Source: Thermoproteota archaeon
Lineage (GTDB): Archaea > Asgardarchaeota > Jordiarchaeia > Jordiarchaeales > Freyrarchaeaceae
Assembly (NCBI GenBank): GCA_029258835.1
Contig: JAPDJY010000003.1
Coordinates: 1-18,541, forward strand
DNA: 18,541 nt
Reading direction: 5' to 3'
Made by a program: the position numbers and the translations under genes. This document shows positions 7,507 to 18,541 of this stretch, piece by piece. Numbering within the stretch: the first letter of the stretch is position 1; every line of letters begins with the position of its first letter. A model generated the notes under the pieces. The model saw nothing but the letters and a program-made list of their open reading frames with translations. It was not told where the DNA came from and made no database searches.

Positions 7507-8190
7507 TCACCCCTGTTTCCAGCTTGAATCAGCTAGGGTTTCCTGAGGTTTCCCCACCTCCTCAGCCCCCCCTTGACCCCCTTGAAACTCTACCGTCTTC
7601 CCGGCGTCGTCTATCCTGCCTTGGATAACCCCTGAAGAGATCATCCTCTCCAGAACATCGACCACCAGCTTCTCGCTTATCCCAACCTTCTCAGCGACCT
7701 TCTCGATGCGGATGCGTGAGTATACCCTTGAGATGTCCCTCACCCTTCCCTCAACCACGTCGAGGTTAACGAGGAGTCTCCCGTCAAGAACCCCCCTGAA
7801 CCCCTCCCTAACCATCCCCTCAAACAGGGATACTACGTCCTCGTCTCCGACAACGGGACGCCCCATAAGGCTAGCTCTAGGGACTTCCTCTAGGGGTACC
7901 ACCCCCTTCTCCTCCAGCAGGGACAGCAACGTCCCCCTCAACTCTTGGATGGCCTTAGCTCTCGCCTCCCCTAGCAAGTCCAGCTCCTTCGACAGCCTTT
8001 CAAGCCTTTCCTCCTCCCTCTCAAATGCCTTTAACCCCCACCCCCCCACCCTAACTAGTTGAAGCTTCACCCCGTCGGCTAGCTCGTCAAGCTCCACCAT
8101 AAGCTTGTCGGCCGCCCTCAAGTCCCCTCTCCTCAACGCCTCCTCCAGCTTATCTAGGCGTCCTCTGAAGTCATCGATGGCTCTAAGAGC
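7507..8190 (-). CDS. Helical plus PCI/winged-helix domain region; C-terminal part of an amber-interrupted HEAT-PCI reading frame
   Basis: YSRIRIEKVAEKVGISEKLVVDVLERMISSGVIQGRIDDAGKTVEF (~7585-7722) fits the PCI winged-helix consensus. The frame stays open upstream of the track's TTG (8136) for 18 codons (ALRAIDDFRGRLDKLEEA) directly to the TAG at 8191-8193. Confidence 0.8.
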   Translation of the reverse strand, partial: ALRAIDDFRGRLDKLEEALRRGDLRAADKLMVELDELADGVKLQLVRVGGWGLKAFEREEERLERLSKELDLLGEARAKAIQELRGTLLSLLEEKGVVPLEEVPRASLMGRPVVGDEDVVSLFEGMVREGFRGVLDGRLLVNLDVVEGRVRDISRVYSRIRIEKVAEKVGISEKLVVDVLERMISSGVIQGRIDDAGKTVEFQGGQGGAEEVGKPQETLADSSWKQG

Positions 8191-8919
8191 CTAAACGCTT
8201 AGGTTAATCCACTCCTCCTCCATGCCTGAAAAGCCAAACTTCCTTGCGAAAGATTCGAGGACCCGTCTGCTTTCAGCCCTAACCTCCGGGCTGCCATTCT
8301 CTAGGAGGGGTATCACGTGGATTATTGCCTCTTGGGCTCCGATCTCCTCCAGCACCCTCAGGGAGGCGTTAACGACGTCGGCGCACTCGTCCCTGAGGGC
8401 CATGACCAAGTACGAGAGGACTTCCTCCTTCCCGAACGATCCAAGAGACCTGACAGCCATCAGCCTAACGTCGGGTTCACCGTCTCTGAGCGCCCTCACC
8501 AATCCTTGGAGAGCCGCTTCACCCTTCAAGCGCCTAAGCGCGTTTACAGCTTCCAACCGGACATCCACCGAGCTATCATCCAAGGCCTCCAGAATGTACG
8601 ATGCCAGCCTTGCATCCCCGACCTCACCTAGGATAGCAGCTGCCATCCAGCGCAAGGCAGGGTCGTCGTCCTTCATCACCCCGACGGCTTGGAGGGCGAC
8701 GGAGCGGCCACCGGCAATACCTATAAGCCTGGCTAAGAGGAGCCTCTGGCAAGGGTTAAGGTTCCTCGCCTCCCTCAGGCACCGTAGAAGCGTGTTAAGG
8801 TCTGCTCTTGCGAGGAGCCGCAAGGCCTCCTGGACATCGGATGGGCGACCAGCCCTCAGAAGCCTAACCAGCCTCCTTACCGTATCCCCCCGGCCTCCCT
8901 TAACCTCAACTCCAAGCAT
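8191..8919 (-). CDS. HEAT-repeat (PBS-lyase-like) protein; N-terminal part of the amber-interrupted HEAT-PCI frame
   Basis: About five 31-aa repeats of the type L.D.D..VR..A..ALG (e.g. LDDSSVDVRLEAVNAL, LRDGEPDVRLMAVRSLG). ATG 8919 behind GGAGGAGG. Ends at an in-frame TAG. Confidence 0.85.
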   Translation of the reverse strand: MLGVEVKGGRGDTVRRLVRLLRAGRPSDVQEALRLLARADLNTLLRCLREARNLNPCQRLLLARLIGIAGGRSVALQAVGVMKDDDPALRWMAAAILGEVGDARLASYILEALDDSSVDVRLEAVNALRRLKGEAALQGLVRALRDGEPDVRLMAVRSLGSFGKEEVLSYLVMALRDECADVVNASLRVLEEIGAQEAIIHVIPLLENGSPEVRAESRRVLESFARKFGFSGMEEEWINLSV

Positions 8920-9187
8920 CGCTCCTCCTCCCACAACCGCCCATGGAGATGAATAGAAAGATCAAAGGAGCTTTTTATGAACTTTTTGGTTTTAAACCGC
9001 TTGCTGACGGTTGAATCCCTCTCCACGGGGAACCTAAGCCACGGTCGATAAGGAATCCTGATAACATGCTGAAGCATGAATGCTTCCTGAGTGCTCTGCC
9101 TAGGCGGGAGCTGTCAGGCACCATCTAAGCCGCCGGTTTAAACGTTGCACTAGCACAAAAAGATAAACGGTAAAAGGGGAAGTTGCA

Positions 9188-12082
9188 ATGAAGGTAATAG
9201 GAACTTGGTGGGTTCCCGGTGGGAGCGTGATAAATCACAAAAACGTTGAGGACTTGGTAAGGAAGCTGGAGGCCGGCGACCTAAACGCTAGGGTGGAAGC
9301 CGCATGGGCTCTCGGAGAGCTGAAAAACCCAAAGGCCGTTAAGCCACTCATAGAAGCCTTAAAGGATGAAAACTGGCGTGTAAGGTGGAGGGCTGCATGG
9401 GCTCTGGGAGAAATAAAAGATCCCAGAGCGGTCCCCCCTCTGATAGAGGCTTTGAGGGATGAGGACTCCAGGGTTAGGGAGGGTGCCGCCAGAGCCCTAG
9501 GGGAGATAGGGGACAGGAGGGCCGTCGAACCCCTAATAGGGGCGTTGGAGGACAGGGATCCACGTGTGAGGAGGATGGTAGCCCACTCGCTGGGCGTGCT
9601 GATGGATAGAAGGGCGGTTAAACCCTTAATAAGATGCTTGAAGGACGAGGACTCAGGGGTGAGGAGGGAGGCTGCGTGGGCGCTCGGCAAACTGGGTAGT
9701 AGGCGGGCCGTCGAGCCCCTAATAGAACGTTTAGGGGACGAGGATGCCGAGGTTAGGGAGGAGGCTGCTGAGAGCCTTGGCAAGATAGGCGATAGGAGGG
9801 CTGTCGAACCGTTGGTGAACGCCTTGAAGGACGAGCACTGGCTTGTAAGGGTTGAAGCCGCCGAGAGCCTCGGTGAGATAGGGGATAGGAGGGCTGTTGA
9901 CGCCCTAGTGGAAGCGTTGAAGGACGAGGAGTGGGAGGTTAGGGAGAGAGTGGCGTGGGCGCTGGGGGAGCTGGGCGGGAGGAGGGCTGTCGAAGCGCTC
10001 GTGGGTGCGCTGGGAGACGAGGAGTGGGAGGTGAGGAGGAACGCTGCAGACGCCCTAAGAAAGATAGGTAAGCCCGCCGTGAAGCACCTCGTCCAAGCCC
10101 TAGAGGACGAGAACCCGTCGGTTAGGGAGGGTGCCGCCATAGCGCTGGGGAAGATAGGTGATGAAAGAGCTGTTGAACCGCTCATGCACGCCCTTAGAGA
10201 CGAGGACTCAGGGGTGAGGGAGAGGGCTTCAGGGGCGTTGAGGGAGATGGGGAAGGGTGTGAAGCGCATAGGCGAGTACGGGGTTATAGGGGACCTGAGA
10301 ACGTGCGTCCTCGTGGGCGTGGACGGGTCCATAGACTGGTGCTGTCTCCCCTACGTTGAATCCCCAAGCGTCTTCGCCGCCATCCTGGACCCCGTGAAGG
10401 GGGGATGCTTCGCCATCCACCCGTCAGGCTCGTTCGAGTCAGAGCAACGGTACGTTGAGGACACTAACGTTCTGCAGACGGTTTTCAGAACGCGTACGGG
10501 TGTGGTTGTCCTAACGGATTTCATGCCGGTTGCTGAAATGGAGGGCGCCCCACAGGGAATATTTAGGAGGGTGACGTGCGAGGAGGGGGTGGTTGAACTC
10601 GAAGTTAAGTTTAAGCCGCGCTTCAACTACGCACGTGCGAGGACGAGCATTGAACGGGTTGAAGGCGGAGTCTTGGCTAGGGGGGGAGGAGAGTGGGTTT
10701 TTCTCACCTCCCAAGTTCCGGTGGATGTTGCTGATGGCGAAGCTAGAGGAAGGTTCACGGTTAAGCAGGGGGAGGAGTTGTGGTTCGCCCTACATTACAG
10801 GGGGGATAAGCCTGTTGACCTGGAGTCCTGCGCCGCCATGCTGGAAAACACCATTCGGTACTGGCGTGAGTGGGTTAGGGGTGGCCGCCTTCCTGAATGG
10901 GTTGTCGACGAGGACTGGAGGAGCCTGGTCCGCCGTTCGGCGCTCGTCCTGAAGCTTCTCACCCATCCCAGCGGTGCGATCTACGCAGCCCCAACAACAT
11001 CTCTCCCGGAGAGGGTCGGTGCATCCCTTAACTGGGATTACAGGTTTGCCTGGATCAGGGATGCCTCCTTCACCGTGCAGGCATTCTACAACCTTGGCTA
11101 CGTTGAGGAGGCTAAGAGGCACCTTAAATGGCTTATACGCATCTGCGAGGAATGCGAGGACCCGTCAGAGATCCAGCCCCTCTACGGCTTGTACGGGGAA
11201 CTCGACCTTAAGGAGACGGTGCTAAGCCACCTTTCAGGCTACAGGGGCTCCAAGCCCGTGAGGATAGGGAACGAGGCGGCGAGGCAGAGGCAGCTCGACA
11301 TCTACGGTGAACTCGTTAACGCAGTGTACGAGGTTACACGCTACGGCGAGGAGATCTCAAAGGATGCCTGGGAGTTCGTCAAGAGAACCGTCGACTACGT
11401 GTGTAAGGTGTGGAACACGCCTGACGCTGGAATATGGGAGTTCAGGGGGGAGCCACGACACTACGTTTACTCGAAGCTCATGTGCTGGGTTGCCCTTGAC
11501 AGAGGAATTAAGATAGCGAAGCGTTTGGGAGACCACTCTAGGCTGGAAAGGTGGATAGAGGCTAGGGACGAGGTTAAGAACGCAATACTTGAGAGGGGGT
11601 TCAACAGGAGGCTCGGCAGCTTCGTCCAGCACTTCGACTCTGACGTGCTGGACGCTTCATGCCTCCTAGTACCGGTCATGGGGCTCCTCCCCTTCAGCGA
11701 CTACAGGGTTCAGGGCACGATCAACGCTGTGATGAGGAGGCTTATGCCCAAGGAGGGCCTCGTGTACCGGTTTGAGGCCTCCGACGAGTTCTACCGGGAC
11801 GAGGGCGCTTTCATCCTCTGCTCCTTCTGGCTCGTGTACGCTTTAGCCCTCTCAGGGAGAATAGAGGAGGCTGAAAGGGTGTTCAGAAGCGTTCTAAGGT
11901 ATGCAAGCCCTCTGGGCCTGTTCTCTGAGGAGGTTGACCCGAGGACGGGTGAGCAGCTAGGCAACTTCCCGCAGGCGTACAGTCACATAGGACTCATAAA
12001 CAGCGTACTCTACATTAGCATGGCGAAGAGGGGGGAGCACATGAAACCTGAACCCTTAGGTTTCGAGGCTGAAAACGCCTGA
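9188..12082 (+). CDS. Fusion of an N-terminal HEAT-repeat solenoid with a GH15 glycoside hydrolase (trehalase/glucoamylase-like)
   Basis: aa ~29-355 are HEAT repeats. From aa ~358 comes the GH15 N-domain (IGEYGVIGDLRT..LVG.DGSIDWCCLP..SPSVFAAILD) and the catalytic barrel motifs PTTSLPE, NWDYRFAWIRDASF, QLDIYGE, GIWEFRG, YSKLMCW, LGLFSEE, LGNFPQAYSH. An alternative start is GTG 9227. Confidence 0.93.
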   Translation: MKVIGTWWVPGGSVINHKNVEDLVRKLEAGDLNARVEAAWALGELKNPKAVKPLIEALKDENWRVRWRAAWALGEIKDPRAVPPLIEALRDEDSRVREGAARALGEIGDRRAVEPLIGALEDRDPRVRRMVAHSLGVLMDRRAVKPLIRCLKDEDSGVRREAAWALGKLGSRRAVEPLIERLGDEDAEVREEAAESLGKIGDRRAVEPLVNALKDEHWLVRVEAAESLGEIGDRRAVDALVEALKDEEWEVRERVAWALGELGGRRAVEALVGALGDEEWEVRRNAADALRKIGKPAVKHLVQALEDENPSVREGAAIALGKIGDERAVEPLMHALRDEDSGVRERASGALREMGKGVKRIGEYGVIGDLRTCVLVGVDGSIDWCCLPYVESPSVFAAILDPVKGGCFAIHPSGSFESEQRYVEDTNVLQTVFRTRTGVVVLTDFMPVAEMEGAPQGIFRRVTCEEGVVELEVKFKPRFNYARARTSIERVEGGVLARGGGEWVFLTSQVPVDVADGEARGRFTVKQGEELWFALHYRGDKPVDLESCAAMLENTIRYWREWVRGGRLPEWVVDEDWRSLVRRSALVLKLLTHPSGAIYAAPTTSLPERVGASLNWDYRFAWIRDASFTVQAFYNLGYVEEAKRHLKWLIRICEECEDPSEIQPLYGLYGELDLKETVLSHLSGYRGSKPVRIGNEAARQRQLDIYGELVNAVYEVTRYGEEISKDAWEFVKRTVDYVCKVWNTPDAGIWEFRGEPRHYVYSKLMCWVALDRGIKIAKRLGDHSRLERWIEARDEVKNAILERGFNRRLGSFVQHFDSDVLDASCLLVPVMGLLPFSDYRVQGTINAVMRRLMPKEGLVYRFEASDEFYRDEGAFILCSFWLVYALALSGRIEEAERVFRSVLRYASPLGLFSEEVDPRTGEQLGNFPQAYSHIGLINSVLYISMAKRGEHMKPEPLGFEAENA
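9272..10252 (+). repeat. Coding tandem repeat: ~10 full plus 1 partial 31-aa (93-bp) HEAT units
   Basis: Consensus DEDxxVRxxAAxALGEIGDRRAVEPLIEALK; one unit is 30 aa. Confidence 0.92.
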
Positions 12083-12300: not shown

Positions 12301-12771
12301 TTACGTTGCACCGTCAGCGGCCGGGCTCCCACCGTCTAAAAACCATTTTGACAGGAATCTTTTAGCTATGGTAAAGGGTTCCTCGGCGTAGTTAAGGGCT
12401 TCCCTCGCTCTTTCAGGGGTTGCAAGCCTCCAGGGCGGTATCCTCCTCACCGGGTCGCCGTAGGACATTCTCCCGTGCTCGGGTGCAAGGTTGCGTGCGT
12501 AGTCGGCCAGCTTAAGGAGCCCATCCACCTCCCGTGTTTCACGTATTTCCTCGATGTTCTCCTCTACGAGTGCTATTAGCTCGCTGCTTGGGTCATGGCT
12601 CCAGCTTGGCATCCTGAAGCAAGATATAACTGCCTTGGCAGAGTTTTCCACCGAGAGCTGCGAGTTTGAGATGCATTCGTCGTTGTCGCCTCTTTGAAGG
12701 GCTTTCCTAGCCCTTTCAAGGTAGCCTTGAGCCAGCTCCAAACGGTAGTAGGCCTCATCCTTGAAGTTCAA
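12301..12771 (-). CDS. HEPN domain protein
   Basis: A.YRLELA.GYLERA...SQLSVENSAKAVI...SHDP...SYGD pattern of archaeal HEPN proteins. TTG 12771 overlaps the upstream TGA (TTGA) and follows GGTGAGG. Confidence 0.88.
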   Translation of the reverse strand: MNFKDEAYYRLELAQGYLERARKALQRGDNDECISNSQLSVENSAKAVISCFRMPSWSHDPSSELIALVEENIEEIRETREVDGLLKLADYARNLAPEHGRMSYGDPVRRIPPWRLATPERAREALNYAEEPFTIAKRFLSKWFLDGGSPAADGAT

Positions 12772-13238
12772 AGCCTCACCTCGACCACTTCCCCTCTCCT
12801 GAGCTTCCGGAGAGGCTTCCAACCCCTCTTACCGTCCTTGGTGGTGTAGGGTGTGAGGCCAGCCTTCTCCACGGCAGCCCTGACACGCTCGAAGAAGCGG
12901 CTCAGAAAACCTTCCGGGTCGTATAGTATGACGGCATCATAGGCGATGTTGACTAGGAGCGGCGTCACATCAACCAGCTCGTCCGCCTCAACGGTGACCA
13001 CGCTTACATCTCTCCCAACCACCCTCCTCAACGGAGAGACAGCCTCGTATATCAGCCTCAGCCTCTCCCCCGGAGGCGCATCCAAACCCCTAGTCACAAC
13101 GAAAACGTCCACGTCACTCCTATCGTCACAGTCCCCCCTAGCAACACTCCCAAAAAGAGCAACCCCTAAAAGTCTGCTCCCAATCCTCCGCTTAAGCAAC
13201 TCAACAGCCACGTTAAAACCGCCAACCAAACAAAACAC
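12768..13238 (-). CDS. Minimal nucleotidyltransferase (MNT; MNT-HEPN antitoxin-like)
   Basis: LFGSVARGDCDDRSDVDVFVV is the GS-x10-DxD motif; TPLLVNIAYDAVILYDPEG follows. Translationally coupled to HEPN. The start codon is uncertain. Confidence 0.88.
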   Translation of the reverse strand: MFCLVGGFNVAVELLKRRIGSRLLGVALFGSVARGDCDDRSDVDVFVVTRGLDAPPGERLRLIYEAVSPLRRVVGRDVSVVTVEADELVDVTPLLVNIAYDAVILYDPEGFLSRFFERVRAAVEKAGLTPYTTKDGKRGWKPLRKLRRGEVVEVRL

Positions 13239-13451: not shown

Positions 13452-13791
13452 CTAGCTCACCCACTTCCTGCCAGCAACGACTCCCACCAGAACACCGGCA
13501 ACAACGCCTCCAGCCGACCCCATACTAAGAAGAATCAGCCCTTCCTCCTGAGACTGAAGCTGAACAAGCAACATCAGAACCAACGGCAGCAGGAGGCTGG
13601 CTGAGCGGGAGCCGAAGCGGAACTCGTAGGATCAGTTCCGCTATTGAACTCCTCCAAGTTAGAGAAGCCGTCGCCATCCGAGTTCTGCCCTGAGCCGTCG
13701 CTCGTCGAGTCCAGGCTGTGCTGAACCTCCCAGCCGTCAAGATGCTGAAGAAAAGTAAAACAAACAAAATGGATTTAACATTAAACACCAC
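13452..13791 (-). pseudogene. Collapsed, frameshifted remnant of a secreted Ca-binding-repeat, membrane-anchored protein (same architecture as the neighbouring protease)
   Basis: Three frames piece together a signal-like MVFNVKSILFVLLFFSIL, then DGWEVQHSLDSTSDGSGQNSDGDGFSNLEEFNSGTDPTS, then SLLLPLVLMLLVQLQSQEEGLILLSMGSAGGVVAGVLVGVVAGRKWVS* (TAG 13452-13454). Confidence 0.75.
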
Positions 13792-14032: not shown

Positions 14033-16333
14033 CTAACCTTGTTCAGATGGAGACCATTCCATAGGCGGTTCACCCGATGTCTCATCGCTTAACCGACGCT
14101 TACTGATTATACGCCTACCAACTATAATCCCTACTACTGCAGCAACAGCAGCAACTCCCGCAACCAATGCAAGTATAAGGGAAGAGTTCGGCTTAAGCGA
14201 AGCAAGCAACATCAAAGCTAAAAGCGGGAAGTCGTTGCTAGCGGGGTTAAAACCATGCTCTACTTCCCACCCGTCAGGTAAACCGTCTCCATCGGTATCA
14301 CTAGACCGTGGGTCAGTACCATACTGGTACTCCTGCAGATTGTTGAGACCATCATTGTCCGGATCATCAAATGGGTCGAAACTCGTCGGATTAAGACCAT
14401 ATTGCACCTCCCAGCCGTCAGGCATGCCGTCCCCATCGGTGTCGTCGCTCTGCGGGTCGGTGCCATGCTGGTACTCCTGCAAGTTGCTGAGGCCGTCATT
14501 GTCAGGGTCTTGCCCCGAGTCCTCGCTCAGCGGGTTAAAACCATGTTGAGCTTCCCAGCCGTCAGGCATGCCGTCCCCATCGGTGTCGCTGGAGGACGCG
14601 TCCGTTCCCAGCTCCCATTCCCTAGTGTTGTTTAACCCATCACTATCATAGTCCAAGTAGTTATGCTCCTGAGGGTTGAAGAAGTGGTGCAGGTATTCGT
14701 CCCACATTATGCTGGAAGCGAAGCTCATATTATCATAGTAGCTGTACAAACTGCTGCTTTCATTTGGATGGTATATTGCTATTCCATGGGAGTTTAGGTG
14801 GCTTGCTCCATGAACCTCCTTTATGATCGATGTTGTAACGTTGTTTTTAACATTAGATGTGAGGGTTTGAAGCCACTGATCATTAATCTTCGAGGCCAAT
14901 TGACTCATAAGGTCGTATAAGTCCACAAGGCCATAATCGCTATAATTGTAGTATTTTTCCGTGTCGTTTACTGCTTGTAGCATTTTTTCTTTCCATGTTG
15001 TGTCGAGTGTTTGTATGTCCAGGAGTTTCGCTGTCTCATTCAACGCAGCATACAACTCACCCATCTTCGACAAATCCACAGCAGCCATAGTCTTACCTGA
15101 ATGCGTGTAGCGCTGATCATACGCATCCACTATCCACCCCCCAAGCTGCGAAGGAGAAGCAGAAGGATTCTGAGTTAAGTTTTCAAGGAAGTCCATGTAG
15201 AAAACGTAGTAGTCGCCTAACGCTGAGATAGCTTCTTCTGAGGCTACTGCAACATTTGCGACGCTTGAAATGGTGTAGAAGTTTTCAAACGTCCCTGTTA
15301 GGCATGAGAAGTAGAAGAGGACGTCAACCCCGCCACTCTCATTAAGGGCTTGAAGGATTTCATCATACTCCAAGTTATCTTCATTGCTGCTGTTATCCCA
15401 GCAGACGCCGAAAATGCCTCCACCGTGATCCCACGTGTTCAACGCGTAGTGTTGGGCTGGGAAGTGTTGTTTAGCGTAGTTTATGAAGTTTTTGAGCGTG
15501 TCGGGGTCGCCCATGTTCAGCTCGCTGCAGCCGTAGTCGCTGAGCCAGACAAGCCCCTCCTTGTAGACGTAGTAAACCCATGTTCCCTCCTGCAAAGTGT
15601 AGTTGTAGTCTGATGAGGGATCTGAGTGGTCTATCATCGCTATTATGTTCACGTTGCTTGTGCTTCCTGCTCCAGCCATGGCTGCAAGAACGTTCATTGC
15701 CATCATTCCAAGGTTGCAGTCTGCGTCTAGGTATGCTATGAATGTCCAGTTTGCTGTGGGTCTGGTCATTGCGTCATTTGCTGACGTGTTGAAGCAGAGC
15801 CAGTAGTCGCAGTAGGCAGAGCCGGACTCCGCGATCCTTATGGTCCAGTACTTGTTTGAGGGGTCACCGTTAGTCAGGGTGTAGACCAGCCCGAGCCTAT
15901 GCTCCACATGGTAATACGCGGCTGTGTTGTTGACGACCATTGTCCCGTTTGGAGCGAGCAACGACAGGACTAGTGTGCTCATGTAATCCTCGCCACCGGG
16001 GGTCACGTTTTCCAGATCCAAAGATACGTATATGGTGTACCCCGGCCCTGGAACTGATATATTGTAGCAGTCTACGCTGTCCATAAGGTAACCTATGTCT
16101 CCACTGTATGTTCCTGGGGTTGTAAGTATCATTGCGCTTCCCGGGTCTCCTCCCGCGTCGCTTGACTGGTTTCCGTCTTTTAGCGTGGGGGTGCTGAGTG
16201 GTGGGGTGGGGTTGTTTGTGGCTAGGGCTGACAGGATGTAGTTTTGATGGGGGCTGAGGGGGATGTTTGATGATATACTGGCTAGTCCTATTATTGTGGC
16301 TATTATTAATCCTGTCAGCACTATTTTTCTCAT
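14033..16333 (-). CDS. Secreted, C-terminally anchored clostripain-family (peptidase C11) protein with Ca-binding DxDxDG repeats
   Basis: Signal peptide MRKIVLTGLIIATIIGLASI and a beta-rich PPC-like N-domain. C11 motifs NWTFIAYLDADCNL, ELNMGDPDTLKNFI, WDHGGG (His), SCLTG (Cys), ASEE, GIAIY.P. Then DTDGDGMPDGWE repeats and a TM helix with a basic tail. Confidence 0.9.
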   Translation of the reverse strand: MRKIVLTGLIIATIIGLASISSNIPLSPHQNYILSALATNNPTPPLSTPTLKDGNQSSDAGGDPGSAMILTTPGTYSGDIGYLMDSVDCYNISVPGPGYTIYVSLDLENVTPGGEDYMSTLVLSLLAPNGTMVVNNTAAYYHVEHRLGLVYTLTNGDPSNKYWTIRIAESGSAYCDYWLCFNTSANDAMTRPTANWTFIAYLDADCNLGMMAMNVLAAMAGAGSTSNVNIIAMIDHSDPSSDYNYTLQEGTWVYYVYKEGLVWLSDYGCSELNMGDPDTLKNFINYAKQHFPAQHYALNTWDHGGGIFGVCWDNSSNEDNLEYDEILQALNESGGVDVLFYFSCLTGTFENFYTISSVANVAVASEEAISALGDYYVFYMDFLENLTQNPSASPSQLGGWIVDAYDQRYTHSGKTMAAVDLSKMGELYAALNETAKLLDIQTLDTTWKEKMLQAVNDTEKYYNYSDYGLVDLYDLMSQLASKINDQWLQTLTSNVKNNVTTSIIKEVHGASHLNSHGIAIYHPNESSSLYSYYDNMSFASSIMWDEYLHHFFNPQEHNYLDYDSDGLNNTREWELGTDASSSDTDGDGMPDGWEAQHGFNPLSEDSGQDPDNDGLSNLQEYQHGTDPQSDDTDGDGMPDGWEVQYGLNPTSFDPFDDPDNDGLNNLQEYQYGTDPRSSDTDGDGLPDGWEVEHGFNPASNDFPLLALMLLASLKPNSSLILALVAGVAAVAAVVGIIVGRRIISKRRLSDETSGEPPMEWSPSEQG
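14235..14655 (-). repeat. Coding tandem repeat, 144-bp/48-aa period (bacterial TSP3-like Ca-binding units), ~3 copies
   Basis: DTDGDG(M/L)PDGWE..HG.NP....DPDNDGL.NLQEYQ.GTDP. An identical DNA block CCCAGCCGTCAGGCATGCCGTCCCCATCGGTGTCG occurs at ~14410 and ~14554. Confidence 0.9.
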
Positions 16334-18410: not shown

Positions 18411-18541
18411 CTAGATCAACTCCTCAGCCTTCTCGCCATAAAGGTTCTCAGCCACATCACGGGTTAATTCTTCAGGGGTCTTGGCGAAGAGGTTGTGGGA
18501 GATTGAAGGTCCCTCCTTAACGAGTCTTAGGGCGTCATAAC
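18411..18541 (-). CDS. wor5S: C-terminal fragment of a polyferredoxin-like small subunit (WOR5S-like)
   Basis: Not in the track. Manual translation gives YDALRLVKEGPSISHNLFAKTPEELTRDVAENLYGEKAEELI*, resembling the WOR5S tail (DAL.IV...FAK.P.E...D.A...G E). The stop is 1 nt before the wor5L ATG. Confidence 0.7.
   Translation of the reverse strand, partial: YDALRLVKEGPSISHNLFAKTPEELTRDVAENLYGEKAEELI

Follow-up and report, generated by a model that had tools for sequence, protein, structure and literature searches.

The stretch of DNA analysed here (18,541 nucleotides, hereafter the window) contains on its minus strand a gene that is normally single and is interrupted by one in-frame TAG codon at 8193..8191, which is probably (at roughly 60%) an ordinary stop introduced by a recent, strain-specific nonsense mutation. 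Judged from the sequences compared, programmed recoding is refuted and the TAG is either a plain nonsense allele arising from a single base change or an error in that base, because it amounts to a one-base change in one assembly, while the gene is intact in the same species and in its relatives. According to the proposed mechanism, an A to T change at the first position of codon 243 would have converted AAG (Lys) into TAG, which the organism would read like any other stop. The product translated from ATG 8919 would then be a 242-residue HEAT-only fragment ending at 8191, and the normal level of the coiled-coil and PCI-like half would not be reached. Such a lesion would be young, the 227 codons downstream of it being free of any further stop or frameshift. 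For annotation purposes, 8919..7507 is best described as a single gene with a strain-specific internal stop, rather than as two genes.

Reading frame and layout of the gene

The minus-strand frame 8934..7507 has one interruption, the TAG at 8193..8191, and is otherwise open. On this strand, the ORF 8919..8194 with HEAT repeats and the coiled-coil/PCI ORF 8190..7510 have a common frame, with the TAG as their sole separator, which bears out the initial annotation, where two same-frame ORFs parted by a single in-frame TAG had been described. The junction reads ...MEEEWINLSV-TAG-ALRAIDDFRGRLDKLEEALRRGDLR... on the minus strand, and NLSV-TAG-ALRAIDDF on the protein side. The read-through length of 470 codons proposed earlier is likewise correct when counting from ATG 8919, which makes the TAG codon 243. 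Since the intact protein of the conspecific (P0040) begins with MLGVEV, this ATG is most likely the start of the gene, rather than GTG 8934. Both inverted repeats that had been pointed out around the TAG are also present, at 8203..8190 and 8191..8179. The features of the gene are as follows.

8194..8919, minus strand: upstream part of the gene, codons 1-242, predicted HEAT-repeat solenoid (Pfam, AF2 and Foldseek; start taken from P0040)
8191..8193, minus strand: in-frame TAG, codon 243; AAG (Lys) in conspecifics and GGG, AAA or AAC in orthologues
7510..8190, minus strand: downstream part of the gene, codons 244-470, predicted to form three long helices (spectrin/plakin-like bundle) followed by a tandem winged helix with a PCI match (Pfam, AF2, Foldseek and VIA-align)
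7509..7507, minus strand: TGA, stop codon of the whole gene
7585..7743, minus strand: Pfam PCI (PF01399) match, residues 398-450 of the read-through protein (P0001)
8190..8203, minus strand: inverted repeat CCTAA-gcgt-TTAGG, perfect in the TAG allele only and with one mismatch in the AAG allele
8179..8191, minus strand: inverted repeat GGCTCT-t-AGAGCC, directly 3' of the TAG and kept in the intact AAG allele
7567..7584, minus strand: two tandem 9-nt units, CAAGGGGGT and CAAGGGGGG, in the disordered C-terminal tail; one copy in the conspecific allele

The same site in conspecifics and relatives

Four other assemblies of the conspecific Asgard archaeon Ca. Freyrarchaeum guaymaensis have AAG (Lys) at this codon, with ~99% nucleotide identity at the locus. 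The same base is found in Logan contigs from four public runs (two of which, X3 and X4, may represent one data set): all of them span the site, are ~99% identical to the window, and carry a T at position 8193 of the plus strand, corresponding to AAG on the gene strand. The public runs in which this stretch occurs are labelled as hydrothermal-vent and marine-sediment metagenomes. The 467-aa conspecific protein P0040, which NCBI lists under Ca. Freyrarchaeum guaymaensis, is 98% identical to the read-through product of the window and has a Lys at the position of the TAG. It is coded on four contigs from four sources (NCBI MAG, ENA, JGI and Logan) with identical gene DNA among them, and the window's own 209-aa downstream piece clusters with it at an identity of at least 90%.

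In a search of 40 relatives, three genomes of the same family gave full-length matches uninterrupted by a stop (57-62% identity), and a fourth gave a match truncated by a contig end. In the protein database there are five orthologues of 470-471 aa, each a single ORF with HEAT and PCI together. The relatives in the databases bear the names Candidatus Freyarchaeota / Jordarchaeales, with Ca. Freyrarchaeum guaymaensis as the nearest. The codon at the TAG site is AAG in the conspecific and GGG, AAA or AAC among the orthologues, so that the residue is variable (K/G/K/N). Amongst the shorter homologous proteins, the 209-aa piece of the window itself was the only split form found, and the exact upstream products of 247 and 242 aa are absent from the protein collection. 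The initial annotation had put forward recoding as one reading of the TAG, had named a sense codon in reads or orthologues as the observation that would speak against it, and had suggested recording the codon at this position in related genomes. Sense codons were found throughout, namely AAG in the conspecifics and the codons listed above in the orthologues, in which the gene is a single ORF. Its two other readings, a very recent nonsense mutation and an assembly error, are the live explanations.

The window gene and the P0040 gene are separated at the DNA level by 12 substitutions, together with a single 9-nt repeat unit that keeps the frame. Upstream of the TAG, the differences from the intact allele comprise 6 synonymous and 2 non-synonymous ones; downstream of it there are 3 substitutions (1 synonymous, 2 conservative non-synonymous) in addition to the repeat unit. 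These counts are too few to show relaxed selection and are consistent with a very young lesion. The undecayed state of the downstream half is what would be expected of a young lesion, and equally of a base error or of a half that is still expressed. At a larger scale, the window represents a distinct strain with respect to the conspecific contigs, with 97-99% identity over 16 kb and about 250 substitutions, most of them synonymous. Indels relative to these contigs are intergenic, near an ORF start, compensated or in frame, and no other gene is broken. This clean pattern of strain divergence therefore favours a real variant over an error.

Recoding, base error and other explanations for the stop

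Programmed amber recoding, either by pyrrolysine or by regulated readthrough, would give HEAT-only and HEAT-PCI isoforms, and is suggested by the stop being in frame with an intact frame downstream, by the short inverted repeats flanking the TAG and by the pyrrolysine (Pyl) recoding known from another Asgard class, the Sifarchaeia (PMC9723677). Within the Asgard archaea, however, the Pyl machinery has been described in the Sifarchaeia only and as lost in Jordarchaeia (Sun et al. 2021, PMC9723677). Following the earlier suggestion to search for pylTSBCD, the genome to which the window belongs (91 contigs, 2.72 Mb, completeness 94.7%, contamination 6%) was searched with profiles for PylS, PylD, PylB and PylC, all of which recover Methanosarcina acetivorans as a control, and nothing above the cut-offs was obtained. 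The best TIGR02367 (PylS) match in this 94.7% complete genome scores 38 bits against a cut-off of 178, and amongst the biosynthesis profiles TIGR03911 has no match, while TIGR03910 and TIGR03909 reach 59 bits (cut-off 348) and 32 bits (cut-off 248), respectively. No tRNA with a CUA anticodon was found by ARAGORN, with or without introns allowed, among the just 25 tRNAs recovered from this fragmented genome. When run on all contigs, ARAGORN reports 8 tRNAs if introns are disallowed and 25 if they are permitted, many of the latter with long predicted introns; the tRNA set is either intron-rich or poorly recovered.

Stop codon usage points in the same direction. TAG terminates 533 of the 1812 ORFs of at least 200 codons in the genome (29%), compared to 755 for TAA and 524 for TGA. 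The genome-wide tabulation of in-frame TAGs that had been proposed earlier shows no excess either: neighbouring long in-frame ORFs parted by a single stop number 44 pairs for TAG, 42 for TAA and 46 for TGA. TAG is a frequent terminator, and the genome does not carry the signature of a genome-wide reassignment of this codon. Within the window, the earlier remark that TAG appears as an ordinary stop at 14033 and 18411 agrees with the genes ending at 14033, at 13525 and near 18411. As for the RNA context, no stimulatory structure was seen at the stop, the fold of 101 nt having a z value of -0.34, with 67 of 200 shuffles folding as well, and the AAG allele likewise has the 6-bp repeat that follows this codon. 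Finally, a recoded TAG would not be expected to vary as this one does, the codon not being conserved even within the species and the residue being variable among orthologues. Taken together with the known cases of pyrrolysine decoding (pylTSBCD; Methanosarcina and Sifarchaeia), the window has in common with them an in-frame UAG within an archaeal gene, but differs in that no pyl genes or tRNA-CUA were found, in that TAG is a frequent stop and the codon is not conserved, and in that the host protein is no methylamine methyltransferase. Programmed recoding is thus very improbable, which removes a false lead for stop codon recoding in Asgard archaea, a tempting one given the reports of Pyl recoding from a sister class.

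The inverted repeats had also been considered as a possible hotspot for mutation. The direction of the change fits this idea, since the A to T substitution completes the 5-bp inverted repeat CCTAA-gcgt-TTAGG, but 4.8% of the possible substitutions across the gene would complete a repeat of such size. A templated quasi-palindrome mutation as the cause of the TAG was for this reason demoted to a weak hint.

The main competitor of a real nonsense mutation is an error of the assembly or of the consensus, in which case the strain would have AAG or another sense codon, and the T would be a miscalled base or a minority variant fixed in the MAG. We regard this as possible but clearly the less probable of the two. 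Every other sequence of the species has AAG, the bin has 6% contamination in 91 contigs, which makes mixed populations possible, and the downstream half is intact. The TAG allele is also present in one assembly only, which is a weak argument since the window's own records were left out of the collections. An exact-pattern scan with base W at the site, in collections where those records are left out, gave no second contig with the TAG allele, its sole match being the JGI contig with AAG in metagenome_contigs, against none in genome_contigs; no run was returned by a narrow run search for this allele, which was based on 61 bases and just 2 sampled words. Against an error stands the rest of the window, which is clean in the manner described above. 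Single-base substitution errors are generally rare in a short-read consensus, if this assembly is one. We infer that the base is truly in the DNA of the strain, and that termination there is efficient. A nonsense mutation of this kind shares with the nonsense polymorphisms and young pseudogenes of MAGs a single-base stop confined to one strain, intact conspecific alleles, the absence of further decay and the absence of recoding machinery. Nothing distinguishes the present case from them, the repeat-completing A to T change being only weakly suggestive of a templated mutation.

A real nonsense mutation could also have left the function of the gene partly in place, as a natural split in which the downstream half would be re-initiated at TTG 8136 or ATG 8100, or with slight near-cognate readthrough. 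In-frame starts are indeed available 19-31 codons past the TAG, one of them with GGAGGAGG ahead of it, and the downstream half is free of further lesions. The presence of GGAGGAGG before TTG 8136, from which the possibility of independent initiation had been drawn earlier, is confirmed, but the motif gives no evidence of an internal start because it codes for a conserved L-E-E-A and because the gene, rich in Glu codons, contains 20 copies of GGAGG (14 per kb, compared to 3 per kb genome-wide). The cut would moreover fall inside the predicted helix 234-264, so that the product from TTG 8136 would be without most of the first helix of the bundle, and no split orthologue was found among the shorter proteins. 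We consider a split of this kind improbable. The same low likelihood applies to the broader notion of a leaky amber codon, or of two separately made halves (HEAT-only, and bundle-PCI from an internal start) that still cooperate. If true, it would represent a natural split or a pair of isoforms, in a HEAT-PCI scaffold that is restricted to one Asgard family and resembles the subunits of eukaryotic PCI complexes. The least probable explanation, to the point of being negligible, is that the TAG lies inside a small bulge-helix-bulge (BHB) intron spliced from the mRNA. The protein is collinear with all orthologues without any insertion, residues W242, L245, V247, F256 and R257 are conserved across the site, and the conspecific allele has the same bases there, with AAG. 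A lax motif scan returned 23 weak matches of 3-4 bp, which is at chance level.

Architecture and distribution of the protein, and neighbouring genes

According to profile searches and structure models, the product of the intact gene, which is already catalogued, starts with a HEAT solenoid, continues into a bundle of three helices and ends with a tandem winged helix of PCI-like type. The upstream part matches HEAT_2 in Pfam with 84.5 bits (cut-off 27.7; 6e-24) and HEAT at 1e-12, and the downstream part matches PCI (PF01399) with 38.2-39.5 bits (cut-off 22; 6.5e-10), a domain which is also precomputed for the orthologues in the protein database. The AF2 model of the intact allele has a pLDDT of 86, with paired helices at residues 12-227, mostly above 90. 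The N-terminal 230 residues are modelled as a HEAT solenoid, for which the best Foldseek matches are alphaRep/HEAT proteins, and the position of the TAG falls nine residues into the long helix 234-264, at the start of the helical bundle. Both the profile score and the predicted solenoid thus place the upstream part among HEAT repeats (PF13646/PF02985).

As the Foldseek search with the whole protein was dominated by HEAT/alphaRep matches, the C-terminal half was folded alone. Its AF2 model (pLDDT 89.6) consists of three long helices followed by two winged-helix units, and is matched by Foldseek to CSN4 (9e-5), ESCRT-II subunits, Rpn5 (2.7e-4), CSN2 and UFL1/DDRGK1, with E values of about 1e-4 to 1e-3. 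With VIA-align, the winged-helix part aligns to CSN3 at Z 11.7 (rmsd 3.8 over 102 residues), to UFL1 at Z 11.1 and to the isolated PCI domain 1ufm at Z 10.7, and the three-helix bundle to a plectin plakin repeat at Z 12.0, Z values of such size being moderate for helical proteins. The profile score and the predicted helical and winged-helix fold are those of a PCI domain, with the tandem winged helices of ESCRT-II and UFL1 scoring equally and the fold class being wider.

This general arrangement, a helical-repeat solenoid followed by a winged-helix module matching Pfam PCI, is shared with the eukaryotic PCI subunits (CSN, proteasome lid, eIF3) and with tandem winged-helix scaffolds (ESCRT-II, UFL1/DDRGK1), amongst which CSN3/CSN4, Rpn5, ESCRT-II and UFL1 are the nearest structures. 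The solenoid is however of the HEAT type here and TPR-like in the eukaryotic subunits, and a spectrin/plakin-like three-helix bundle is interposed. Of the families searched, a single Asgard family has the complete module. The protein may be of interest for tracing the origin of eukaryotic PCI scaffolds, a question which is separate from that of the TAG.

The distribution of the PCI-like half is narrow. An exhaustive phmmer search of 1.84 billion representatives (50%-identity representatives) returned four matches to the C-terminal half: the query itself, an orthologue, P0043 (HEAT+PCI) and P0044 (FG-GAP+PCI+kinase). Among 300 genomes of the phylum, the whole module is present solely in the Asgard family of the window, in 5 of 5 genomes including the window's own, and in the other families only the last winged helix is matched, mainly in ORFs of about 800 aa. 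In one of these families, 58 of the 68 genomes searched have a single ORF of about 790-800 aa that matches the last PCI-like winged helix only (for example L039, G146:C1:448996-449247). These ORFs may encode kinases that bear a PCI domain, or some other conserved PCI protein. Archaeal fusions of PCI-like winged-helix domains with Ser/Thr kinases have been described (Makarova et al. 2024, PMC11188069). The distant relative P0044, with its FG-GAP, PCI and protein kinase domains, resembles these PCI-kinases, and the ORFs of about 800 aa recall them; the PCI-like module of the window differs from them in being joined to HEAT repeats and a helical bundle, with no kinase.

Some other features of the window were observed. 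The tandem duplication of the 9-nt unit at 7567-7584 (minus strand) is present in two copies in the window and in one copy in all conspecific contigs, and looks like an in-frame slippage accounting for a difference of 3 codons. The divergently transcribed neighbour of the gene (9188-12082, plus strand) codes for a 964-aa protein in which many HEAT repeats are fused to a trehalase-like domain at the N terminus and to a domain of glycoside hydrolase family 15. Its counterpart on the conspecific contig L025 has 1074 aa, with an alignment that breaks and overlaps at 9459-9538, which suggests either a difference in the copy number of HEAT repeats or the collapse of repeats in one of the assemblies. 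Overlapping HEPN and minimal nucleotidyltransferase genes, typical of a HEPN/MNT toxin-antitoxin-like pair, are found at 12301-13238 (minus strand) and also on the conspecific contig L025. The gene at 14033-16333 (minus strand), which ends in TAG, codes for a clostripain-family (Peptidase_C11) protein of 766 aa with bacterial TSP3 calcium-binding repeats, and is the most strain-divergent gene of the window, with 56 synonymous and 58 non-synonymous differences.
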